A stretch of DNA of 64,000 nt from a virus (Duplodnaviria > Heunggongvirae > Uroviricota > Caudoviricetes). Shown one piece after another: positions 1,322 to 64,000 of the stretch. A program made the translations under genes and the position numbers. The notes beneath the pieces were generated by a model that worked only from the letters and a program-made list of their open reading frames with translations, did not search any database and was not told the origin of the DNA. The DNA is taken from the IMG/VR virus record IMGVR_UViG_3300032038_000014, positions 64,001 through 128,000 of that record; one strand, written 5' to 3'. Position 1 is the stretch's first letter. The number at the start of each line of letters is the position of its first letter.

Positions 1322-4300
1322 TCATACATAATTTGTAGTTATTGTAATAGAACTACCTTCTCTAGTTATTCGTTGTAATAAACCTGTACGATATTCATCT
1401 AATTGACCAGTTGTATAAACAGTTAAATTAGTAATTTGATAGCCATTAAATCCAAAAATCCAGTTACTTGAGTCAGCATTAATTTCACTTTCAAACATAT
1501 TATAATCAAATGTATCAAATGGACTATTAGTAGAACCTAACTGAATTGCATGAGTTTTTGCAAAGCAGTATGAATATGCACGATAACCTAAGTATTGAAT
1601 TGATCCAGGTATAAAGATTGGTGTATCACCAAGCTCACGCTGTACAAATGCTTGGTTAAATGCATTAGGACCAACATATAAAATACCTTCTGGTAAATTA
1701 AAGAACTCTAAATTACGAGCTCTATTAAATGCTGAAGATCCAATATATTTTAATCCAGTAGGCACATCAAAATAACGAATATTGCTAGTTGCAAAAGTTT
1801 CAGTTGAAATATAATTCATTACTGCTTTATCTTCAAAGAAGATATGAGTAATTCGAGTTTGAGAACCAAAATTAGACATACCAACAACTGGGAAGGTTTG
1901 TCCATTTGCTGTAATAGATGCTGGTATAGTAATCTTACCAGATAATTCTACTCCATATTTTGGTTGAATACTCCAACCTTCACTATTGTAATCACTACTG
2001 TTCATTTTAGTTACAGAGAAGTAATCACTCTTAGTTGTACTAGCATATACACTTTCTTTACAGTAACAAGCAAAGAACGCTCTATCAGTATTTTGAGACA
2101 TAATGTTGGAAAGTTTAACAGTTTTTGCTTTTGCTTTATTAGTAACAATACCATCTTCTTTATCAACTACCCATCCTAAGAAAGTATAGCGTTCTTCAAG
2201 TTCCAATCCAGATTCATCCATTGAAGGAAGAATTGGTGGATCAGATAACATAGTTCCATAATTAACATCAACACTATAAAGCGGTTGTCCACTTCCAGGA
2301 ATCTGATTAGGATTCCAGAAACTAATGTTAAATGAAGTAATAGAAAATACTGCATAGAATGTATAAACATCATTTTGTGCAGAAAACTCTAAATTTGAAA
2401 TTGTAGCAGGATTATTATTAGCTAAATCTTTACTAAAGATAATTCCACTATTAATTAATCCAGCAACTTGATCAGACTTTACAACTGTATAGTTTGGATC
2501 AAGTGTCCAACCTTGGAAGTCATAATTTTGCTTAATTGGAATTTTCTTTGTCATCGTAGGATGAATAGATCCAGATTTAGCATATCTGATAGTTTCAATT
2601 TCATTATCTTTTCCATTATCTAATCTTTGTACAAATTTAGCAATATAAGCTTCATTTACATTAGCAGCATAAATCTTTAATTTATCCCAAATCTTACCAT
2701 ATTTATCAGTAATATCTGCTTCTTCAACAGCTGTACCATTTTCATTAGAAACATAAATAGAACCTGTAATATTAGGATATCCAAGTGTACTAGTTAAGTT
2801 ACTATAATGGCTTGTTTGAGATACGCTTACAGAAGCTTCACTATAATCTGCAATAAACTTATCTAAAACAGATAAAGAATCAATTAATACAGAATCAGCA
2901 TTAGCTTCATAAGTAAAGATTTTTTCATTTAAAGTTAAACTTGTCCAATCTTCTGCAGAGCTAAATGTAAAATTAGTAAATGTACTATGATCAGTTAAAC
3001 GATAATAAGTAACGTTTGGATCATATGGAGTACCAGGTTCAACAACCTTATAAGGAGACCATTCAACTTCCTCAAGGTTAATACGAAGTCTTGTTCCAGC
3101 AGCAGCTTTACGATCAACTAGTTCAAGAGCATTAGTTAATAACTTATAAGAATCATATCCAAGAGCACCACCAACAATATTAATTCTATCAAGAGCAACT
3201 TTAGCAGCATCTGTAGCATTAGTTAAATCAGTAACACCCTCAATATAAAGTCCTTTATAAGAATCTCTTGGTTGACCAAATACAACTGGTTTAGATGTAA
3301 GTATGCGAGTAAGCTCTCTAGCCTCAATAAGATCGATTCTGTTAACAGACTTAGGGAGGTGAATAGTGTCCAGAGGGGCACCTTCCGCAAACAAAGCATA
3401 TTGAATCTGAGTTCCTAATGCTCTGCACTCCTGGAGTTTTTCAGAACCAGATACATCTAAAGGTTCTTGTAATTGAGTTACATTTGTTAAATTAATTCTC
3501 TTTAATAATGTCTTACGGCTTGGGTTCAACATAGTTTGACCGCCACCAGTGTTGATATATTTAGAGTCATTAATATTAAACTGTCCTGTTCCAACACCAA
3601 GTAAGTTATTGAAATAGTCAGGAGCATCACTACCTATATCTAAGTTAAGAATTCTCTTACCATTCATAAGTGTAAATTGTGATAAGTATTTAAGACTTAA
3701 ATCTCCAAGACTAGAAATATAGTCCTCTGCTGGAACAATAATAATCTGTTCCGGGAATCCAGGAGTTGTCTTATAACCATCAGTTACACTTGCTCCACAT
3801 GTAGTTTTAACTGGTATACCTTGATATTTAACTGGTTCACCAGAACGCTGTTTATCATTGTATGTAAATACATACTGACTTAAGAATGGAGTAATTTCAA
3901 ATTCTGGTGTTGCATCATAGTATTGTACTGGATATGGAGCTAATTCTTCTCCACTCCATGCATTATTAGGTAATGTACTTAAAATACCGCTATCTAAGTA
4001 TTTATCAGAAGTACCCATATTATTTGCATTAGCACGCATACGTACTCCACCTTGAGCAATTGCGGCCGGTGTATAGTCACCTGCAACCCAGTATGAATCA
4101 AGGTAATTTAATCTATTTCTTAATAATAACTCTCTTGATAACATTCTGTCACCATTAACTGCATATGCATAAGAGTTATTATCATATTTAAGTTCACCGC
4201 TTGTGTTATAATATCCAGTTTTAGAAGGAGCTACATACTTATAATATTCATCTAATCCGATAGCAATCATTGGACGAAGTCCTCTCATTGCATAAGAGTC

Positions 4301-54167: not shown

Positions 54168-55229
54168 TTATTTACTTTTGGCCTTAGAATTTCGGCAAGC
54201 TTTACAAATGGAATAAAAACCATCTCTACTTGTCTTATTTTTAGAAAAGTATTTATTATGAGCTAACTTAACCTGCCCGCATCGCGAACACTTTTTATAT
54301 TTACCTTTTTCTATATTTAAAAAATACCAATCTAAAGTTTCATCTTCTGCAACAGAAGCAATCAATTTAGGAATTTTATTCCTCCATAAGGAACTAATAT
54401 ACTCTAAACTATGAGTTAACCCAAACTTCGCCTGCAATAACTCTTGAATCTGAATATTCTGCAAACCATCAATTTTTGCAATAACAATTTCCTCATAAAC
54501 TGGATAATCTTTAAGAGCTTTCTCACTAATTCTATCAAAATCATGCATTAAATACCAAGTATCATCTTCAAAATTACCCCAAGCAGCTTCTTTTAGTTTA
54601 GAATAATTACAAAGAATAGCACTACAAACTTTAGGACTACATAAAGAAACTCCTTCTGGAATTATATATCCATCTTCACTAAAACTAAAGCTATCCGGTA
54701 AAAAAGTAGTATGACGACTATGAGTTAAATTACTAAGTCTAATTGGTTTGCGATAAGCCTCCTTAATAATATATTGACTTTTCCGCAAATCTATAATCGC
54801 CTTTTTAATAATATACTTATCTTTCCCTTCAGCTTTCTTCAACTGTTCTTCCCATAATTGAATAGCTTCCCGCACTTGCTTTAAATAAGGTATTTCTTCT
54901 AAATCTTTTTTTGTAATTGTAACTTTTGGTTGAAATATTTGTGTCTTTGATTCATTAATTAAATTATAAATTCCATCTTCACCATTCTCAAATTGAGAAA
55001 CCAATCCTTCATATGACGTTTCTCTTTTATTAACCGTAGTCATACGGTTTTCAGTAAGGATTTTTTTCTCCTTCCTTTCTTGTTTCTCCATACATAAGAT
55101 TAGGTAGTCAGCCAGAATCTCCAAATATTGGGGATTTGGATCTGGATTCTCTTCCAAGATCCGTTTGACCAACTCATTTCTCTCTTGTGGAGATTCTATG
55201 GTATAATCTAACTTTATTATCCTAACCAC
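54168..55229 (-). CDS. Hypothetical DNA-binding protein with HTH-like region and C-terminal Zn finger (~350 aa)
   Basis: LQNIQIQELLQAKFG..HSLEYISSLW (HTH-like); KCSRCG...SICKAC. Start uncertain (GTG 55229 or ATA 55220). Confidence 0.55.
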   Translation of the reverse strand: MVRIIKLDYTIESPQERNELVKRILEENPDPNPQYLEILADYLILCMEKQERKEKKILTENRMTTVNKRETSYEGLVSQFENGEDGIYNLINESKTQIFQPKVTITKKDLEEIPYLKQVREAIQLWEEQLKKAEGKDKYIIKKAIIDLRKSQYIIKEAYRKPIRLSNLTHSRHTTFLPDSFSFSEDGYIIPEGVSLCSPKVCSAILCNYSKLKEAAWGNFEDDTWYLMHDFDRISEKALKDYPVYEEIVIAKIDGLQNIQIQELLQAKFGLTHSLEYISSLWRNKIPKLIASVAEDETLDWYFLNIEKGKYKKCSRCGQVKLAHNKYFSKNKTSRDGFYSICKACRNSKAKSK

Positions 55230-55945: not shown

Positions 55946-56279
55946 TGTAAAGTATGCAGTTAATGACATAGTAAGATTCAAATTTGGTAGGGCGGTTAAG
56001 ACGACTTGCACATGCGACTTTTGTGCTTCTTCTGGAATGATTCGAGGTCTAGATGGAACTGAGGAAGAATGTCCTCGTTGTGATGGTCGTGGCTATATGG
56101 AGTTTAGCAACTATCAGGTAACCGAGGAAGAAAATACAATTAGAAAAATCGGCGTAAAGTGGAATCGTCAATCAAAACCTTCTGTTTATTATATCATGAG
56201 CGATTGGGTGTGGAGTCAAACTGAAATTCCACAGGAAGATATTGTTAAGAAGATAGGTGAAGTATCATTTAGTAAATAG
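55935..56279 (+). CDS. Hypothetical protein with CxxC...CxxC Zn ribbon (114 aa)
   Basis: RBS AGGAG; CDFC...CPRCDG. Confidence 0.6.
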   Translation: MLIDVKYAVNDIVRFKFGRAVKTTCTCDFCASSGMIRGLDGTEEECPRCDGRGYMEFSNYQVTEEENTIRKIGVKWNRQSKPSVYYIMSDWVWSQTEIPQEDIVKKIGEVSFSK

Positions 56280-57140
56280 TCGTTATCCGAAATCTAAAAA
56301 GGGTTTTAGAAGAGTTGTGCCCAGAGCAAAACGTTTTAGCCTTTCAAAAAAATTTTTTTCCCGAAATACACCCCCCTCAAGGATTTTGTATTTCGTTTTA
56401 TCTGAGCACAGCGTATAAAAGGTATTGCCGAGGTCTGAGCGAGCGGGGCAGGCAGGCAGATACACACCCTCCCACAACAGCCCGCACATAGAGACACACA
56501 GACACACAAAGAATAAATAAAATAAAATTATTTTATTATAATGAATAGTATGTCTTGTACTATACATGTAATCTAATCCTAAACCTTTCATTAATACATC
56601 GTTCGTACGCGCGCTGGCGACCCTAGCGCGCGTTGTTTTGCCTTGGGGTATCCGTCAGCATTTTTATTGGACAACTGTGGCTAATACAGTGATACACTCT
56701 ATCGCCCTAAAGTCTATGTGCTACTGCGTTTGTTAATGTAGAGATAGTGTGTATCTCCCTATTAGTACAGTAGCGAACATGTGTGCGTACAAATGCAGTA
56801 GGGTAGATAACCTCTTCATCAAGCAGCAGAAAAGAACAGATGTACGATCCCTAGGAGAATAGTGTAAAGGTAGTCAAGAGGTACGTAGAGACACAAGGAG
56901 GGGCAGGCACCCAAGCCCCAAGGCTGGCCGGCCAGCCAAGGCGAAGCAGAGACAGAGAGAAGAAGAAACAGTGAAAGATAAAGAGAACAATAACAACAAC
57001 ACAATGATACACACACATCACACACTAACAATGATGTATGTATACTATGTAGGTAGGGGGTGCCTGCCCCTCCCCTCCTCCCCCTACCCCTAGGGGGTAT
57101 GGGTATAGTACTATGTACTAATAGCAGTACATAGAAGAAG
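56280..57140. other. Long non-coding, palindrome-rich region (candidate genome end/pac or origin)
   Basis: No convincing ORF with RBS. Several inverted repeats, G/C tracts and AC/ATGT microrepeats. Lies between the late and early modules. Confidence 0.4.
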
Positions 57141-57213
57141 GGGGTTGACACGGTAGGTGTATGTATGTATAATAGTAGTGTAAGTAGAAGGGTGTAACAG
57201 AGAGGTAGTAACA

Positions 57214-57420
57214 ATGGCTAAGAAAACAAAGGTACAGAAAGAGGGAGAGAAGTGGCTCAAGCAGAGTATGACAAAGAAGGCGTTGAAGGAACACTACAAG
57301 AAGGATAGAAACAGAGCCTTATTTGATACAAGCACTAAGACCTTCAAGAGTCCAAAGGACTATGACAGAAAGGCAGAAAAGAGGAAGGCAAGAGAAGTCA
57401 AGCGTGGAGTAGAGGAGTAG
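57214..57420 (+). CDS. Small very basic protein (68 aa), possibly ArfA/BrfA-like
   Basis: Own promoter and RBS GAGAGG; K/R-rich with FDTSTKTFKSPKDYDRK. Confidence 0.6.
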   Translation: MAKKTKVQKEGEKWLKQSMTKKALKEHYKKDRNRALFDTSTKTFKSPKDYDRKAEKRKAREVKRGVEE

Positions 57421-57487
57421 GGCTTGACAGAGAACAAGCCTTGTGCTATACTAACAGTAGCAAAGAAAGAAAGAGAGGGCAAAGACT

Positions 57488-57697
57488 ATGGCAAAGATAA
57501 CAACAGTAAGAGACTTAATCGCACAGCTTGAAGCTATTGAGAATAAAGACCTTGATGTAGTAGTGGATAGTGAGTATGGAGTAATTACAGACATCGAAGC
57601 TATCGAGGGAGCACACAGGTACTATGGCAAGAGTGAAGAGGGCAAAGGCTGGACAGCTTGCAACAGAGAGTGTGTTGTGTTGATAGGTTGGGAGTAA
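57488..57697 (+). CDS. Small early protein (69 aa)
   Basis: Promoter 57424, RBS GAGAGGG, terminator 57699-57719. Confidence 0.75.
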   Translation: MAKITTVRDLIAQLEAIENKDLDVVVDSEYGVITDIEAIEGAHRYYGKSEEGKGWTACNRECVVLIGWE

Positions 57698-57698
57698 G

Positions 57699-57719
57699 AT
57701 AAGCCGAAAGGCTTATTTT
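57699..57719 (+). terminator. Terminator, identical copy at 58569-58589
   Basis: ATAAGCC-GAAA-GGCTTAT-TTT. Confidence 0.8.
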
Positions 57720-57974
57720 ATCTTGTTCTATTCCAGAAGAGAAACAGAAGAAGAAAAGCCTTGACTTGCGGGCTTGCCTCTTCATGACTACTAGTAAGCA
57801 AGTCTACAAGATACACCGGAGCACTAGCCCGCAGACAACTCCGTAGATCGAGGGAAGATCGTTTGTTAAAAAAATGACAAAGTCTTTGTGATTGTTTGCA
57901 TTAACATTTATTTAGAAACCTTGACCCATTCCCGAAAGTGGGGTATACTAAGGACAGAAAGAGAGGTAAGAACA

Positions 57975-58154
57975 ATGAGAAAACATTACAAATGGAATCC
58001 ACTAATTCTGCTGAAGAATTTGTTAATCCTTGCAATGATACTGTTAGGAGTGTGGCTCGTAGTAAGTTATGGAGAGATACTTGTAAAGAACACAAGCATT
58101 GATGTAAGACCTATTTACTCCTCTTGGAACTTCTTCACAATGTGGATGGATTAA
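57975..58154 (+). CDS. Small membrane protein (59 aa)
   Basis: Promoter 57921, RBS GAGAGG, ATG 57975, one hydrophobic helix, terminator TGCGGAGA/TCTCCGTA. Confidence 0.7.
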   Translation: MRKHYKWNPLILLKNLLILAMILLGVWLVVSYGEILVKNTSIDVRPIYSSWNFFTMWMD

Positions 58155-58230
58155 AAAATGCGGAGAAAAAATCTCCGTATTTTTTTGTAAAAGGGGTTGA
58201 CACTATAGCTAAAAGGTGCTATACTTACAT

Positions 58231-58372
58231 CATCAGGAGAGGGGAGAGACAGAACACTCCTAGACGAAGATACTACTTAGTGGCGCGAGCCTATGTAGAA
58301 TACAAACCCCGATTCTCACTCACATCAAAAGTTCTGTCCAGGGTCGAGAGTAAGTCGACCATTTTTTTTAGA
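58231..58372 (+). ncRNA. Candidate structured small RNA (~140 nt)
   Basis: Promoter 58197 and terminator GGTCGA/TCGACC-TTTTTTT with no translatable ORF between. Long-range stem GACAGAAC/GTTCTGTC; GGC-GCGA-GCC tetraloop. Confidence 0.5.
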
Positions 58373-58440
58373 AAAACCCTTGACAGCATCCCGAAACCGG
58401 AGTATAATGTAATCACAAAGGAAAGAAAGGAGATCGAAAA

Positions 58441-58572
58441 ATGGATAAAGCAGAAAGACTTGCACAGATTATGTTTGAAGAAGACACACTTCGTGTAGAA
58501 GAAGGAAAAGAACCTATTTACTTCACTCAAGAAGATTATGAAGCAGAGAAAAAAGAAAGAGAAAATAAATAA
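58441..58572 (+). CDS. Small acidic early protein (43 aa; not in ORF track)
   Basis: MDKAERLAQIMFEEDTLRVEEGKEPIYFTQEDYEAEKKERENK; promoter 58380, RBS AAGGAG, terminator. Confidence 0.75.
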   Translation: MDKAERLAQIMFEEDTLRVEEGKEPIYFTQEDYEAEKKERENK

Positions 58573-58657
58573 GCCGAAAGGCTTATTTTTTTTATAAAAG
58601 GGGTTGACACAGAGCCCGGCAGATGCTATACTTAAACCATCAAAGGAGGACAGAAAA

Positions 58658-58810
58658 ATGACTAAGATGGAAATGGTTAATAGAATGATTATTCTCGGCT
58701 GCATTAAAGAGGAAGACCGCAATCACTGGCTCAGACATACAAAGGATTACATCACAAAGGTGTACATCGAGATAATTCCAAAGAGACTTGAGTACTTGGG
58801 CAGAGCCTAA
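58658..58810 (+). CDS. Small early protein (50 aa)
   Basis: Promoter 58604, RBS AAGGAGG, ATG 58658. A 14-bp hairpin at 58787-58819 spans the stop. Confidence 0.75.
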   Translation: MTKMEMVNRMIILGCIKEEDRNHWLRHTKDYITKVYIEIIPKRLEYLGRA

Positions 58811-58900
58811 GTACTCAAGACCGGAGTAAAAAAGGTATTGACACACAGGATCGAAGATGTTATAATTAAATCATCCAAGAGAGAAAGAGAGGAACACAAA

Positions 58901-59350
58901 ATGAAAAAGATTGACATTACACCGTTCAGCAATGCAGATACCAACAACAACGGAAAGAATAGAGAGTTTGCAGTTTGCAGATACTTCGGGATCGAAAGAT
59001 ACACTCATGACCGCACAGCTTACAACAAGGGAAGTGATGTAGAGATAGACGGAAGAAACATCAGCGTTAAATCAGCGGGTTTCACTCTAATGCACGGTAA
59101 CCTCTGTAAAGGCTGTAAAACCTTTGAAGGAATTTGGAGAAGATACTACAGAGAAGTTCATTCAGATGAATGGCTCTATGTAACAAAAGATTGGCAAGGG
59201 TTCTTGATGAATAAAAAAGAGTTCTCGCAGTTTGTCCACAAGTTCTGCACAATCGACAGAGAAAGCACTAAAAATGGTGGACACATTAAAATTAAAAACA
59301 GTTCAGAGACAAAAGCAATGAGAAAATGGCTTGAAGAAAAATGTGCGTAA
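58901..59350 (+). CDS. Early protein, possible PD-(D/E)XK-like nuclease (149 aa)
   Basis: Promoter 58838, RBS GAGAGG, ATG 58901; REFAV...GSDV...ISVKSA pattern; terminator ATGTGCG/CGCACAT. Confidence 0.55.
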   Translation: MKKIDITPFSNADTNNNGKNREFAVCRYFGIERYTHDRTAYNKGSDVEIDGRNISVKSAGFTLMHGNLCKGCKTFEGIWRRYYREVHSDEWLYVTKDWQGFLMNKKEFSQFVHKFCTIDRESTKNGGHIKIKNSSETKAMRKWLEEKCA

Positions 59351-59443
59351 ATCGCACATTTTTTTTAAAAAGTTGTTGACATGCAGACCGGACTGTGTTA
59401 TTATAATTACAGAAAGAAACAGAGAGCAGAAAGGAGCCTCAAA

Positions 59444-59623
59444 ATGAAGACTTACGAAATCAAGAAAATCCGCAAGAACTGGGCAGTATACAGAGATGGT
59501 GAGTTCCTCACTTGGTTCTCAACCAAAAGAGTAGCGAAGAACTACATCGAAATTCGCAAACTCGAAGACGCCGGAGAGAAGTTCAACCCTCTCCATCCGA
59601 GATGGGCAGAGCTGATGCACTAA
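59444..59623 (+). CDS. Small basic early protein (59 aa)
   Basis: Promoter 59376, RBS AAGGAG, terminator AGCTGATGC/GCATCAGCT-TTTTT. Confidence 0.7.
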   Translation: MKTYEIKKIRKNWAVYRDGEFLTWFSTKRVAKNYIEIRKLEDAGEKFNPLHPRWAELMH

Positions 59624-59867
59624 AGCATCAGCTTTTTTAATTCTCAAATCCAAAAGGGAAATCCAATCCCGAAAGTTCAAAAGCGGAAAAAATTGCGCGC
59701 CGGCCGCTGTTGGGTGCAGCGACCGGAGTTTGGCGTGGATTGGGTGGTTCAGATTTTTTGTGCGGATCGGCTGTGGAAAAATTTTTTTAGTTTTTTTCAT
59801 TAAAGGGGTTGACAGGCCGGGTGCCTTGGCGTTATAATTAGGTATACCAAGAAAGGGGAACAGAAAA

Positions 59868-60056
59868 ATGATGTACGTAGAGAGAACACAGTATGAGCAG
59901 GACGTTATCGCAATGGCTTACAACTTCGAGCTTAAGGCTATCGAAGAGTGCGATGCTACTCGCAACCCATGGTTCGATGAAATCATGGCTTGGGAAGATG
60001 GCAAGACAATTTGGTCAGCCATCGACGAGGCTGTAGAAATGCACTACAGCCTCTAA
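59868..60056 (+). CDS. Small acidic early protein (62 aa)
   Basis: Promoter 59809; RBS AAGGGG. Confidence 0.75.
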   Translation: MMYVERTQYEQDVIAMAYNFELKAIEECDATRNPWFDEIMAWEDGKTIWSAIDEAVEMHYSL

Positions 60057-60126
60057 AAAAAACTTGACAACAAGCCATTCATCGTGTATAATACAGACAT
60101 CAAGAAAAGAAAGAGAGGATTAAAAA

Positions 60127-60321
60127 ATGATGAACGCAAAGAGAGAAGCACTGCTTGACAGAATAATCAGAATCTACGGCTTTGAGCACGAGGTCACACT
60201 CGACTTCGCAAGGCTCTGCGAGGAGTGGGTAGACGACATCGCCCACGACAGAATCCTCGAGATGCTGGTCGAAAGCCACGAAGAGTTTCCGCAGTACGGA
60301 GAGGAAGAGGACGAAATCTAA
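60127..60321 (+). CDS. Small acidic early protein (64 aa)
   Basis: Promoter 60064, RBS GAGAGG, terminator AGGACGA/TCGTCCT-TTTTT. Confidence 0.75.
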   Translation: MMNAKREALLDRIIRIYGFEHEVTLDFARLCEEWVDDIAHDRILEMLVESHEEFPQYGEEEDEI

Positions 60322-60487
60322 TCGTCCTTTTTTCTTGCGCCGCGCGCCAACGGTCCTGGCGCGCGGTGTTTGGCTTGTGTACAGGCTACGGAAAAAATTT
60401 TTTCAAAAATTTCGATTTTGGGGGTTGACTTCACCTCCCGGAAGTGCTATTATAATACCAGAGAGAAACAGTTAGGAGGTAACTACA

Positions 60488-60685
60488 ATGATGACAATGA
60501 TAATTGGAATGACACTCGCTGATGCTATCGCTACTCTCAAGGAGCTCGGACTCGAGCGTTGCCTCGAGATGGACCACGATGATACTGTAAAGGGTATCAC
60601 AGTGGGCAACCCATTCGGGACTCACTACATCGCCAATGTCGAGAATGACATTGTGGTCGGTGTCAGAGAGTGGATTTGGAGCTAA
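60488..60685 (+). CDS. Small early protein (65 aa)
   Basis: Promoter 60425; RBS AGGAGGT. Confidence 0.75.
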   Translation: MMTMIIGMTLADAIATLKELGLERCLEMDHDDTVKGITVGNPFGTHYIANVENDIVVGVREWIWS

Positions 60686-60781
60686 ATCCACTCTCAAGAA
60701 AAAATAAAAAAATTGTTGACACGGCATTAAAAATCTGCTATACTATAATCACAAAGAAAAAAGAAAGAGAGGAATAAAAAA

Positions 60782-61069
60782 ATGATGAAAGAAGAAACTG
60801 CAAGAAAGATCGAAGCACTGAGAGAAAAAGTAGGAAATGGAATCTTCCGTGAAAGAGATGTAAAAGGCTATGTGTCGATCTCGACTTTGAGAAAATACGG
60901 ATTCATCGCTTCTGCGACAGAAAGAAAAGAGGTTTCTCTTGATGAACTGATAACAGAAGTTAACGAAATGATAGGAGAAGATTGCTACGGAATGGAAGGT
61001 TGGTATGAAAGAGAGGGAAATAAAATCTTCTACTGCAACGACTATGATAGATACAGATTCATCAAATAG
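60782..61069 (+). CDS. Small early protein (95 aa)
   Basis: Promoter 60716, RBS GAGAGG, terminator ATAGACTT/AAGTCTAT-TTTT. Confidence 0.75.
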   Translation: MMKEETARKIEALREKVGNGIFRERDVKGYVSISTLRKYGFIASATERKEVSLDELITEVNEMIGEDCYGMEGWYEREGNKIFYCNDYDRYRFIK

Positions 61070-61159
61070 ACTTGAAAAAGTCTATTTTTTTTAGAAAAAA
61101 CTATTGACAACCCCGGATTCTTCTGCTATACTTTAGTTACAAAGAAAGGAGAAAGAAAA

Positions 61160-61327
61160 ATGGAACTGACTTACAAATTCGAAATTACATACTTCGTTCT
61201 CGACAGAGAAACAGAGGAAACGCTCGCAACCACTAAAAACCTTGAGGTCGCAAAGTTCCTCAAGCAGAACTACCCAACTCCATCGGTAGTCAGACCAATG
61301 GTCAAAGCAATCGCCTTCGCGAAGTAA
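61160..61327 (+). CDS. Small early protein (55 aa; not in ORF track)
   Basis: MELTYKFEITYFVLDRETEETLATTKNLEVAKFLKQNYPTPSVVRPMVKAIAFAK; promoter 61104, RBS AAGGAG, terminator ATCGC/GCGAT. Confidence 0.75.
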   Translation: MELTYKFEITYFVLDRETEETLATTKNLEVAKFLKQNYPTPSVVRPMVKAIAFAK

Positions 61328-61494
61328 CATCGCAAAGGCGATTTTTTCTTGGCCGACCGCGCACAACCCACGCGGTCGGTGTTTCGCGTAGATTGGGGGT
61401 TCAGAAAAAAGTTTTTCAAAAATTTCAGTTTTAGGGGTTGACTCCGGTTCCCAAAAGTGCTATACTCTAATTGTCAAGGAAAGGAGATCGAAAA

Positions 61495-61692
61495 ATGATG
61501 AGTTTATTCTTTAAGGCAGTTGCCTTCTTAATGATTGTGGACATTCTTGCTTTTGGACTTCTGATAGTCACTTCACCGATTTGGTTGAGGTTCGTTGTTC
61601 AGACCGAATGGTTTGAAAATAAATGCGAAATCGCTGAAGAAGGTTGGGAAATCATCAAAGAAAAATTTGAAAAAGTTTTAAAAAAGTGTTGA
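61495..61692 (+). CDS. Small membrane-anchored early protein (65 aa)
   Basis: Promoter 61438, RBS AAGGAG, N-terminal hydrophobic helix. Confidence 0.7.
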   Translation: MMSLFFKAVAFLMIVDILAFGLLIVTSPIWLRFVVQTEWFENKCEIAEEGWEIIKEKFEKVLKKC

Positions 61693-61755
61693 CAGCAGAC
61701 CGGAAATCTGCTATAATCTAATCATCAAGAAAGAGAAAAAAAGGAGGATCGAAAA

Positions 61756-62034
61756 ATGATGTCTTTAGAAATGGTACTTGAACTTCTTGCTTCTGCAGGT
61801 GATGACCTGATGGTCGATGTATACGGTGATGAAGTCTCCGTAGTAGTCGAAGATTTTGTAGGCTTCGATGATGATTGGTCAGAGGTAATGCGTGACCTCG
61901 ATGACGCTGACCTCGTTGACTCAATCGAGGAACAGCTCTCCGCAGAGTGCGTTTCCGAAGATGGTGACTTCTATCACTACTTCCACTTCGATGGCTTCTC
62001 GGTATGTTGGGGATACGCTTCTTTCGACATCTAA
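61756..62034 (+). CDS. Extremely acidic early protein (92 aa)
   Basis: Promoter 61689, RBS AAGGAGG; 26 D/E, 1 R, 0 K. Confidence 0.75.
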   Translation: MMSLEMVLELLASAGDDLMVDVYGDEVSVVVEDFVGFDDDWSEVMRDLDDADLVDSIEEQLSAECVSEDGDFYHYFHFDGFSVCWGYASFDI

Positions 62035-62125
62035 GAAGTACAAAGAAAAACAAAAAAGGGGGTTGACACAACCCCCTTCCCGGAGTATACTATAGACAGA
62101 AAGAAAGAAAGAGAGGATCGAAAAA

Positions 62126-62377
62126 ATGATGACTACAATCTGCTACAAGACAAAAGAGCCAACTTACTACAACAAAGGCACAGAATGGGAAAAGTCCTGT
62201 GATACATTCCTCGCTTACTACACTTGCAAGACAATGGAAGAAGCAGAGGTTGAAACAGAGGAAATGAATAGAACTCACCCAACTCACTACTCCAACGGTC
62301 TGCCAATCGACTGGGAAAAAATCGACTACTTCTTCGTCGACGAACAGGAAATGTTCGACACAAGAGACTCTTTCTAA
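62126..62377 (+). CDS. Small early protein (83 aa)
   Basis: Promoter 62063, RBS GAGAGG, terminator ACCC-GAAA-GGGT. Confidence 0.75.
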   Translation: MMTTICYKTKEPTYYNKGTEWEKSCDTFLAYYTCKTMEEAEVETEEMNRTHPTHYSNGLPIDWEKIDYFFVDEQEMFDTRDSF

Positions 62378-62577
62378 ACCCGAAAGGGTCTTTTTTGTTG
62401 GCCGCCGGTGCACGAGCGCACCAGCGGTTTTTGCGTTGTGTCAGAGGTTCAGCATTTTGCGGATCGAAATTTGAGTAAAAAAATTTGTAAAAAAATCTCC
62501 TAAAACGCTTGACACGTCCCGGGGTCTATGTTACAATAGTGGTGTAAGAAAGAGAGAGCACCGAAAGGGGGTACATC

Positions 62578-62709
62578 ATGGCAGTATACGTTAAGAGTGA
62601 AATGGCTTGGGGTGAGGTAGTTTGCTACCTCGATGAGGACACTGTCCTCGTCCGCATGGATGCGGATCCGTGGTTCCCAATCGCGGTAGATGCTACTGAA
62701 ATTCAGTAG
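62578..62709 (+). CDS. Small acidic early protein (43 aa; not in ORF track)
   Basis: MAVYVKSEMAWGEVVCYLDEDTVLVRMDADPWFPIAVDATEIQ; promoter 62509, RBS AAGGGGG. Confidence 0.65.
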   Translation: MAVYVKSEMAWGEVVCYLDEDTVLVRMDADPWFPIAVDATEIQ

Positions 62710-62720
62710 CATCCAGCTAT

Positions 62721-62796
62721 GTGCCGATAGCACAACGGATAATGCGCTTGACTACGAATCAAGAGATTGGGGGTTCGAATCCCCCTCGGCATACCA
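62721..62796 (+). tRNA. trnR: tRNA-Arg(ACG)
   Basis: Cloverleaf GTGCCGA/TCGGCAT, anticodon arm CTTGA-CTACGAA-TCAAG, T arm GGGGG-TTCGAAT-CCCCC, encoded CCA. Confidence 0.92.
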
Positions 62797-62878
62797 AAAA
62801 AATTTTTTTCAAAAAAGTATTGACAACGACCCCGGGTCGTGGTATACTATAGACAACCTAAAGAAAGGAGACAATCGA

Positions 62879-63097
62879 ATGCTTCGCGAGTATACCATCA
62901 GAGGATGCGTATGCCACCTCTCTGAAGAGACCATCGCAGTCTATGAAGAGAACCTCAGAGCAATCGAGGATGAGCGTTCTGCTTGGCAGGCTCAGCACGA
63001 TGCCTATCTCAGAGCGTGTGAGAGTAATGACCCAATGGATTGGTCAATCTACTCTGACCTCTACAAGGATTGCTACGGAGTACGCCCTCGCCACTGA
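62879..63097 (+). CDS. Small early protein (72 aa)
   Basis: Promoter 62820, RBS AAGGAG, ATG 62879; C-terminal YSDLYKDCYGVRP motif common in phage proteins. Confidence 0.75.
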   Translation: MLREYTIRGCVCHLSEETIAVYEENLRAIEDERSAWQAQHDAYLRACESNDPMDWSIYSDLYKDCYGVRPRH

Positions 63098-63319
63098 ATC
63101 AGATTCGGAGCTCTTCGGTGCTTGGCAACAGAAACCGAAAACAAATAAAACCCGCAAGGGTTCTTTTTTTTGACCGCTGGCTCACGGGCGAGCCGGCGGT
63201 GTTTGCGATAATACCAGGATTCAGCGATTTTTTGATCCAAAAGCAGGCAGAAAAAATTTTTAAAAAATTTCCTAAAAAGGGGTTGACTGCGGCGAGCGGA
63301 TAGTCTATAATAGTAAGTG

Positions 63320-63391
63320 TCAAGGGGAGAGTGGTACTAACCCAAGGCGAGCCTTAATGGGGAGCGGGTTCGAATCCCGACGCTGACGAGT
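63320..63391 (+). ncRNA. tRNA-like RNA or degenerate tRNA
   Basis: Own promoter 63283. T-arm CGGG-TTCGAAT-CCCG, D-loop-like AGTGGTA, partial acceptor GTCA/TGAC. No canonical anticodon arm or CCA. Confidence 0.45.
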
Positions 63392-63458
63392 GAAACATAA
63401 AAAAACTTTGAAAACCCCTTGACACTCTCTACACTCTATGCTATAATTACATCATCAA

Positions 63459-63533
63459 GGGTGGTTAGTTCAAAGGACAGAACAGTGGTCTTCTAAACCA
63501 TAGATAAGGGTTCGATTCCCTTACTACCTACCA
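63459..63533 (+). tRNA. trnR: tRNA-Arg(TCT)
   Basis: GGGTGGT/ACTACCT, GTGGT-CTTCTAA-ACCAT, AAGGG-TTCGATT-CCCTT, CCA. Confidence 0.9.
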
Positions 63534-63537
63534 ACTT

Positions 63538-63612
63538 GCACCGATAGCATAATGGTAATGCAATTGCCTTGTAAGCAATGGATTGGGGGTTCAAATCCCT
63601 CTCGGTGCTCCA
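63538..63612 (+). tRNA. trnT: tRNA-Thr(TGT)
   Basis: GCACCGA/TCGGTGC, ATTGC-CTTGTAA-GCAAT, CCA. Confidence 0.92.
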
Positions 63613-63617
63613 CTTAT

Positions 63618-63693
63618 GGGTTCGTAGCTCAATTGGTAGAGCAATCGGCTGTTAACCGAAAGGTTGTAGGTTCAAATCCTATCGTTCCCGCCA
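63618..63693 (+). tRNA. trnN: tRNA-Asn(GTT)
   Basis: ATCGG-CTGTTAA-CCGAA anticodon arm, T arm, CCA. Acceptor GGGTTCG/CGTTCCC has two U.U mismatches. Confidence 0.88.
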
Positions 63694-63698
63694 TTTAT

Positions 63699-63774
63699 GG
63701 GAGATTAGTTCAGAGGGAAGAACAACAGACTTTTAATCTGTGGGTCGTGGGTTCAAGTCCCACATCTCTCACCA
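63699..63774 (+). tRNA. trnK: tRNA-Lys(TTT)
   Basis: GGGAGAT/ATCTCTC, ACAGA-CTTTTAA-TCTGT, GTGGG-TTCAAGT-CCCAC, CCA. Confidence 0.92.
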
Positions 63775-63778
63775 TCAT

Positions 63779-63856
63779 GCGCGTGTAGCACAGTTAGGTT
63801 AGTGCAGTGCTCTGATAAGGCAAAGGTCGTTGGTTCAAATCCAACCATGCGCACCA
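63779..63856 (+). tRNA. trnI: tRNA-Ile(GAT)
   Basis: GCGCGTG/CATGCGC, loop CTGATAA, GTTGG-TTCAAAT-CCAAC, CCA. Confidence 0.9.
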
Positions 63857-63895
63857 AATTTTTCGAAGCTTTCATTTTTCTACCTCCTTGTTGAA

Positions 63896-63918
63896 ACCCC
63901 CGAAAGGGGGTTTTATTT
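63896..63918 (+). terminator. Terminator after tRNA cluster
   Basis: AAACCCCC-GAAA-GGGGGTTT followed by TATTTT. Confidence 0.75.
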
Positions 63919-64000
63919 TGAGGTAGTTGTTGTAAAAAATTTTTTTAAAAAATTTAATAAAAGTGCTTGACAACCGGATCCCAATAGTGTATCATTAAGA

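Follow-up and report, generated by a model that had tools for sequence, protein, structure and literature searches.

Why does a phage carry a small, GC-rich hairpin, each time with a different stem sequence, at the ends of successive blocks of early genes? The question is raised by a stretch of 64,000 nucleotides of phage DNA (hereafter the window), in which a sequence-only reading had noticed five such hairpins between small early gene cassettes. The window comprises bases 64001-128000 of one 132,097-bp IMG/VR contig, classed as linear and with an estimated completeness of 69%; genes reported below as absent from the genome were sought in this 69%. We found that the hairpins are this phage's copies of a clade-wide element which marks the boundaries of early blocks and always lies on the early-gene strand.

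A hairpin family at early-block boundaries

All five hairpins were located where they had been described, on the plus strand at 59700-59726 (e1), 60340-60366 (e2), 61353-61379 (e3), 62401-62428 (e4) and 63174-63199 (e5). The divergent sixth copy that had been suspected upstream turned out to be a full member of the family (e6, plus strand, 56607-56633), the first of the series, in a non-coding leader before the early genes. A seventh copy (e7, plus strand) was found 493 nt past the end of the window, at genome positions 128493-128521 (L082:493-521, where L082 denotes the sequence that follows the window). The seven hairpins are 26-29 nt long, with a G+C content of 78-85% and RNA folding energies between -16 and -21 kcal/mol (-16.2 kcal/mol for e1, -20.6 kcal/mol for e2). 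When the whole 132-kb sequence was scanned for stable GC-rich 30-mers, 16 sites were returned; seven of them were these hairpins, all within 8 kb. The stem sequences all differ while pairing is retained, and double changes were seen at six of the 11 predicted pairs in the seven-copy alignment, which bears out the compensatory variation of the inner stems proposed earlier. A search of Rfam gave no match at the hairpin elements. Three weaker GC-rich palindromic fragments (L082:1800-1830, 2385-2410 and 3192-3220; genome 129.8-131.2 kb) are found where later units of the same arm meet. A 15-nt string is common to two of these fragments, all three fall below the threshold of the covariance model described below, and they may be decayed hairpin copies.

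Related loci were collected with two anchors, a sigma-factor-like gene (80 loci) and an exonuclease-like early gene (45 more), and the early arms of both sets carry the same type of hairpin. The family element is 27 nt long, with a 10-bp stem made almost purely of G/C and a 7-nt loop. In a loop-centred consensus of 92 hairpins from relatives, the 5' flank reads T-T-S-G-G, the loop starts with A-C-G and the 3' flank reads A-R-T-T-T. The stem contains an invariant C-G-C amid three positions that switch between C and G, the opposite bases changing to match.

A covariance model of 45 positions (R1) was built from 52 non-redundant hairpins of relatives, none of them from this genome. The training set itself was 91% paired with double changes in nine of ten pairs, figures that are inflated because its hairpins had been picked by a hairpin finder; independent evidence for the family therefore comes from the R1 searches. 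Over the whole 132-kb genome, R1 gave exactly seven matches, all on the plus strand, and no match besides the seven hairpins. Scores ran from 45.9 bits (E 7e-15) for e2, the copy nearest to the family consensus, through e3 (40.4 bits, E 1e-12), e6 (38.6 bits, E 5e-12), e1 (25.8 bits, E 6e-7) and e5 (23.4 bits, E 6e-6) to 18.6 bits (E 5e-4) for e4; e7 was matched as well. Hairpin e6 has orthologues at the matching position in relatives.

The same model matched 178 times in 44 exonuclease-anchored loci, with 177 matches on the early-gene strand, and 141 times in 72 sigma-anchored loci, where every match was on the early-gene strand and on the early-arm side of the anchor. Thus 318 of the 319 matches in the 116 related loci were co-oriented with early genes. 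Five relatives were searched over their whole sequence, four of these being at least 93% complete; they had 1-10 copies each, confined to one arm of 8-18 kb and to one strand, save for one weak partial match on the opposite strand that overlapped a stronger co-oriented one. Among 112 distinct matches the loop was 7 nt long in 101, and the outer eight pairs were 96% Watson-Crick; the T-T-T of the 3' flank is 85-99% conserved. The earlier suggestion that a conserved shape and length with a free sequence indicate a site read by structure fits these hundreds of co-oriented copies with variable stems. Two R1 hairpins are present in phAss-1, a human-gut phage in which TAG is read as glutamine (PMC10607447); the paper on this phage contains no mention of hairpins, promoters, terminators or repeats, and our search of the literature found no description of the element.

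A strict form of the consensus occurred in 12 stretches in 596 Gb of prokaryote genomes, all of them on contigs of gut or rumen metagenome-assembled genomes (MAGs). These stretches (L254-L265) came from bins assigned to Acutalibacteraceae, Oscillospiraceae, Lachnospiraceae and unclassified Clostridia, plus three unlikely bins. Several of the contigs are only a few kb long; two are of phage-genome size (149 and 164 kb), which suggests that they are binned phage. Since the strict consensus is otherwise virtually absent from these prokaryote genomes, the element is neither a host repeat nor a generic GC palindrome, and an origin from repetitive extragenic palindromic (REP) elements of the host is rejected. 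The hairpins do resemble REPs and bacterial interspersed mosaic elements in being stable, GC-rich, imperfect palindromes that lie after genes in intergenic DNA, in many copies and with variable stems. They differ in being no host repeat, in keeping to one arm of a phage genome and to one orientation, and in that no REP-associated tyrosine (RAYT/Y1) transposase was found. As a side observation, the bins hint at Oscillospirales-type Clostridia as hosts and at phage contigs mis-binned into MAGs.

The repeated module and its lineage-specific parts

Each copy ends a block of one to three small early genes, and all copies precede a promoter that matches 10-12 of 12 consensus positions. Six of the seven follow a terminator, at 2-10 nt past its T-run in five cases and at 65 nt in e1, so that the hairpins had been rightly described as lying directly after a cassette end or terminator for most copies but not for e1. 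The preceding terminators, all on the plus strand, are at 59608-59641 for e1 (an 11-bp stem and T-run), 60309-60333 for e2 (a short stem and six T) and 62378-62396 for e4 (a GNRA-loop stem and six T), with those before e3 (61329-61348) and e5 (63149-63171) taken from a terminator scan. No terminator precedes e6, which is itself the highest-ranked terminator-like site in that scan and the sole terminator-like signal between the upstream plus-strand genes and the early arm.

On the downstream side, an A/T tract and a sigma-70-type promoter follow on the same strand at 59777-59838 for e1 (a 12/12 consensus match), 60389-60453 for e2 and 61405-61466 for e3; the promoters of the e4 and e5 modules are at 62509-62537 and 63283-63311. 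An alignment that ran from the T-run before the hairpin up to the following -35 showed the seven modules to be homologous over about 120 columns with a mean identity of 64%. Two lengths occur, a short one in e2 and e3 and one about 23-25 nt longer in e1, e4, e5 and e7. From hairpin end to next -35 we measured 83, 59, 59, 81, 84 and 82 bp, that is, two classes of 59 and 81-84 bp, in agreement with the 59 or 82-84 bp given before. The A-tracts noticed after the hairpins are indeed present, but they are UP-like (upstream-element-like) parts of the promoters and not of the hairpin element. A second conserved helix was looked for in the spacer between hairpin and promoter, and none was predicted.

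The fixed-distance GGTTCAG motif had been regarded as another part of the element. The motif itself is real: it occurs exactly after three copies, e1 (59746-59752), e3 (61398) and e4 (62446-62452), and as a variant one base longer after e5 (63217-63224), all on the plus strand. It is shortened after e7 and e6 and absent after e2, and the window as a whole contains nine matches to it where 4.2 +/- 1.7 were expected. As a feature of the family it did not hold up. It was not found after the hairpins of relatives, where each lineage has its own downstream repeat, often operator-like. A scan of IMG/VR with a degenerate pattern for the hairpin tail plus GTTCAG gave single chance matches only and carried no information on this point.

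The motif is instead tRNA-like. The GGTTCAG stretches match a part of the phage's own tRNAs that runs from the variable loop through the 5' strand of the T-stem into the beginning of the T-loop, over 19 nt of tRNA-Thr for the stretch after e1 and over 17 nt of tRNA-Arg(ACG) for that after e3 (61390-61406, plus strand); in neither case did any of 200 shuffles reach the score. The A/T tract and promoter of the modules are also found behind the real tRNA-Arg gene. These likenesses are most simply read as the outcome of an ancestral module having taken up or truncated a tRNA gene before it was duplicated, GGTTCAG being a lineage-specific relic of the T-arm; the fixed distance between hairpin and motif would then be inherited rather than mark a second recognition site. 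A minus-strand promoter formed by the reversed motif was considered and rejected, as its spacing resembles neither sigma-70 nor extracytoplasmic function (ECF) promoters and a -10-like hexamer is present only in e5. A role of the hairpins as leaders of tRNA genes was likewise set aside, since tRNAs are rare in the early arms of relatives (seven in 124 loci).

A further tRNA-like feature lies next to the last copy in the window. At window 63283-63390, the e5 promoter drives no open reading frame (ORF) but a stretch of about 70 nt that includes a perfect tRNA T-arm. ARAGORN did not call it even at a relaxed threshold, and it may be either a decayed tRNA or a tRNA-like RNA. It is situated just ahead of an array of five tRNAs with a promoter of its own.

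In relatives the hairpin is often wired to additional promoters. Among 135 non-redundant copies, a strong forward promoter, its -10 ending 2-4 nt ahead of the hairpin, was seen at 41, and a strong antisense promoter, its -10 ending mostly 6-9 nt beyond the hairpin, at 40; both occur at 12, so that 69 have at least one and 66 have neither. The orientation of the loop is the same in all promoter classes. Copies with an antisense promoter tend to have a bidirectional terminator upstream (A-A-A beside the stem in 10 of 15, compared with two of 13 without such a promoter), and this combination leads to a predicted RNA of 60-80 nt with the hairpin at its 5' end. In L204, L206, L208, L227 and other loci the predicted RNA would contain hardly more than two hairpins. 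In the present genome, none of the seven copies has a promoter that points into it from either strand. An orphan promoter aimed into the hairpin is thus not a defining part of the core, as 69 of the 135 relatives' copies have one and 66 do not. Because all the copies here belong to the class with neither promoter, the hairpin with its flanks is the indispensable core, and its function does not depend on the orphan promoters.

What the hairpin may do

The position of the hairpins after terminators and before promoters, their co-orientation with the genes and a T-rich stretch that follows them on the sense strand only all argue for a polar boundary that acts on read-through polymerase. We put it at somewhat below an even chance that the hairpin is a polar insulator or backup terminator, probably factor-assisted, inside a repeated module similar to the promoter early stem-loop (PeSL) cassettes of T4-type phages. 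A polymerase reading through the first, short-stemmed terminator would transcribe a very stable hairpin and a U-stretch, would be paused or released there and so would not transcribe across the next strong promoter. A helper factor, either host-encoded of the NusA/NusG type or phage-encoded, would probably take part, since the U-stretch has few bases and in most copies is displaced by two; with such a factor, the constant geometry and the conservation of loop and flanks would be accounted for as well. As a secondary effect, the directly repeated 120-145 bp module (hairpin, spacer, A/T tract and promoter) would provide homology for the gain and loss of cassettes, with crossovers in its promoter-proximal part and not in the hairpin.

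We scored hairpin and T-tract as an intrinsic terminator, using modern energy parameters with which the threshold is approximate. Two copies were clear, e4 (+13.9), with five T directly after the hairpin, and e7 (+15.5); e6 (+1.2), e2 (+0.8) and e5 (-1.6) were near the threshold, and e3 (-16) and e1 (-42) were below it. The antisense score was never positive, either here or among 110 relatives. The arrangement is like that of tandem intrinsic terminators in that a polar second GC-rich hairpin with a T-rich tail stands behind a first one at the end of strongly transcribed units. It differs in that most copies here score below the classical threshold, and in that size, loop and flanks are conserved beyond what termination calls for.

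Several observations weigh against backup termination. Besides the fact that only two of the seven copies here are clear terminators by the classical score, and that only 20% of those in relatives pass, the usual 3' flank consists of two purines followed by only three T. The fixed 27-nt geometry, the ACG at the 5' side of the loop and the 5' flank exceed the needs of a plain terminator. In the outer eight pairs there are 12 G-T against eight A-C combinations, an unusual ratio if selection had acted on the structure only as sense RNA. In about half of the relatives' copies a strong promoter is aimed at the hairpin from one side or both, at a fixed distance, which simple backup termination leaves unexplained, and about half of the terminators in the early arm have no such hairpin behind them.

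Several features together suggest a specific reader of the RNA or of a single DNA strand: the offset by two purines, the constant size, the conservation of the loop and of the 5' flank, and the scarcity of wobble pairs. A broader proposal, which we regard as tentative and more doubtful than not, is that the hairpin with its ACG loop and flanks is the site of a dedicated factor and belongs to a new system of polar punctuation, be it a terminator or insulator that depends on the factor or a strand-specific signal for nicking or priming. The system would be common to a large clade of uncultured Clostridia phages and mostly wired to orphan promoters, with the present genome showing a minimal, promoter-less form.

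Somewhat unlikely, in our estimate, is the alternative that a dedicated protein or nuclease docks on the hairpin and reads a folded single strand by its shape, ACG loop and flanks. Candidate roles on RNA are processing or stabilising; those on DNA are a strand-specific nick, priming, a fork barrier or a pause in DNA ejection, in which case the co-orientation with transcription would reflect the direction of DNA entry or replication. Such a site would account for the constant geometry with its nearly invariant 7-nt loop, for the asymmetric conservation of loop and flanks, for the near-absolute strand lock and for the almost exclusive Watson-Crick pairing, in which G-T is about as rare as A-C. 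Weak terminator scores and the near absence of the strict consensus from prokaryote genomes, which speaks against a generic GC palindrome, also favour it. On the other side, no candidate reader protein was found, and the genome has no detectable tyrosine recombinase (PF00589), Y1/HUH transposase (PF01797) or serine recombinase; the stem varies at three positions among copies, which a reader must tolerate; and no result separates DNA from RNA.

Two other phage systems bear comparison. The hairpin promoters of coliphage N4, which go with a virion RNA polymerase, have stems of 5-7 bp and 3-nt loops and stand directly before the genes that they drive. They share with the present elements that small DNA hairpins, read single-stranded in N4, are repeated before early genes; here, by contrast, a 10-bp stem carries a 7-nt loop, and the hairpin is separated from the next gene by a full host-type promoter. 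In Bacillus phage SPbeta, the SPBRE repeat is a 15-bp duplex operator in promoters, bound by the repressor MrpR (PMC10516654). Like the hairpin, it is repeated in the early intergenic or promoter regions of a large phage of Firmicutes, and it had been recognised in silico well before the protein that reads it was found. As a duplex operator and not a hairpin, it is closer to the operator-like repeats that follow the hairpins of relatives.

We consider it improbable that the modules are above all PeSL-like blocks of homology for shuffling early cassettes, with the hairpin as a passenger or an unimportant second terminator. In T4-type phages, PeSL cassettes (PMC2839356, PMC4122927) are early-promoter stem-loop modules that exchange by homology within the module (PMC4122927). 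The earlier comparison with them was apt: here, too, a stem-loop and a near-consensus sigma-70 early promoter are directly repeated between small variable early genes, and cassette differences between relatives start and end at the modules, with homologous exchange inside. The PeSL stem-loop, however, is an ordinary, short and lineage-variable terminator, whereas here a second hairpin follows the terminator. This hairpin has a fixed 27-nt geometry with conserved loop and flanks throughout a clade of Firmicute phages unrelated to T4, and in relatives orphan promoters fire into it. The likeness is one of function only, with no homology to T4-type PeSLs or to a T4-type genome.

The proposal that gain and loss breakpoints map to the elements was examined among relatives, as no close relative covers the early arm of this genome. 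In ten closely related loci, ends of alignment breaks within 30 nt of hairpins were enriched 2.3-fold (38 against 16.6 +/- 3.9, a count that includes repeated events), but 93% of break ends were elsewhere. When the segments between relatives' hairpins were labelled, the order of cassettes proved mostly conserved. The exceptions, seen in two groups of relatives, were events of whole cassettes bounded by modules: cassette N present or absent, K lost, one slot filled by either P or F, and D plus E replaced by X. For the N indel (L219 compared with L220), the switch between partners was mapped about 95 nt downstream of the hairpin, in a shared segment of operator and -35, and the hairpin belongs wholly to the left partner. 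Hence the part of the proposal that stands is that cassette events are bounded by modules, while the crossover lies outside the hairpin. As judged from this one mapped crossover, cassette exchange is homologous exchange within the repeated regulatory module and is not site-specific at the hairpin.

These events, the enrichment of break ends and the presence, within 8 kb, of a 95-145 bp module repeated seven times in direct orientation are what shuffling blocks would predict; the many break ends elsewhere and the conserved cassette order are not. Moreover, the hairpin, with its varying stem, is the part least fit for homologous exchange and yet the most conserved feature across the clade, which means that selection acts directly on it.

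It is quite improbable that the hairpin serves as the body of a small RNA, the orphan promoters of relatives yielding short GC-hairpin RNAs with a triphosphate cap, which could serve as decoys or stabilisers. The forward and antisense promoters at 41 and 40 of the 135 copies, with their fixed close spacing, and the 60-80 nt RNA predicted from bidirectional upstream terminators agree with this idea. In the present genome, such an RNA would be produced only via read-through or an unrecognised promoter. Against the idea, the seven copies are well conserved here without any inward promoter, and the loop keeps its orientation between forward and antisense promoters. The stems vary among copies, which makes mimicry of a single target, such as a CRISPR (clustered regularly interspaced short palindromic repeat) unit, unlikely. 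CRISPR-repeat mimicry as such was rejected, given no arrays among the genome matches, seven stems that all differ and no match in Rfam.

The view of the hairpin as a protein-bound upstream activator or a DNA-bending module for the next promoter we judge very unlikely. The hairpin is always upstream of a strong promoter with phased A/T tracts, but the two spacing classes of 59 and 81-84 bp differ by a non-integral number of helical turns, the distance in relatives ranges from 59 to 117 bp, and many equally strong promoters of the same arm have A/T tracts and no hairpin.

Least probable of all is the idea of attC-like or other sites of site-specific recombination for the capture of cassettes. 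Integron attC sites are much longer than 27 nt and imperfectly paired. Like them, the hairpins are recognisable by shape over sequence, with variable stems, and are placed at cassette boundaries; unlike them, they are short and almost perfectly paired and show no attC-type core repeats. Neither the tyrosine recombinase or HUH protein that had been suggested as worth looking for nor a serine recombinase was detectable in the 69% of the genome searched, the mapped crossover is outside the hairpin, and copies at orthologous positions are vertically inherited. A Chi site, a Z-DNA or cruciform sink for supercoils or a decoy for restriction sites would each leave the asymmetry of loop and flanks unexplained.

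The phage, its early arm and the meaning of the hairpin

The early arm (window 56000-64000 plus L082:1-4097) has a G+C content of 41-44%, against 27-35% in the remaining genome. In line with this contrast, early genes differ visibly from late genes in codon and base composition. From 57145 on, the plus strand is a dense run of small genes, including six tRNA genes, with 21 promoters that match 10-12 of 12 sigma-70 consensus positions; the minus strand of the arm has no promoter comparable to these 21. A sigma-factor-like gene (window 54168-55229, PHROG sigma factor) adjoins the arm. By this gene the closest relative is L002, at 85% identity, and it diverges before the early arm begins. Megablast and blastn searches of the region against 50,697 phage records gave tRNA matches, one 77-nt match to phAss-1 and nothing more.

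The portal protein is 37.5% identical to that of phAss-1, with a more distant likeness to the portals of SPbeta-like and Enterococcus phages. The phage is a distant relative of phAss-1 with a portal of SPbeta/Schiekvirus type. Reading TAG as sense brought only a slight gain, with ORFs of at least 200 codons totalling 36,150 codons instead of 34,109, and no suppressor tRNA was among the six tRNAs found. Before the first early promoter lies the non-coding leader that contains e6, about 850 bp long (window 56283-57140). Its sequence includes a small palindrome as well as CA/GA-rich runs and long blocks of purines or pyrimidines, and the region may represent an end of the genome, a site of packaging or an origin. 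In relatives, short AT-rich direct repeats precede the first hairpin.

Large uncultured gut and rumen phages of Clostridia, grouped around the code-15 phage phAss-1, are abundant and have no experimental model. For these phages the hairpin is a practical marker of the early arm and of its orientation in metagenomic contigs. It is also a short, defined element for studying what may be a new way of insulating tightly packed strong promoters, and the modules around it provide a concrete case of the exchange of early 'ORFan' cassettes. By carrying the hairpin without the orphan promoters of its relatives, the present genome shows which part of the cassette is the indispensable core.

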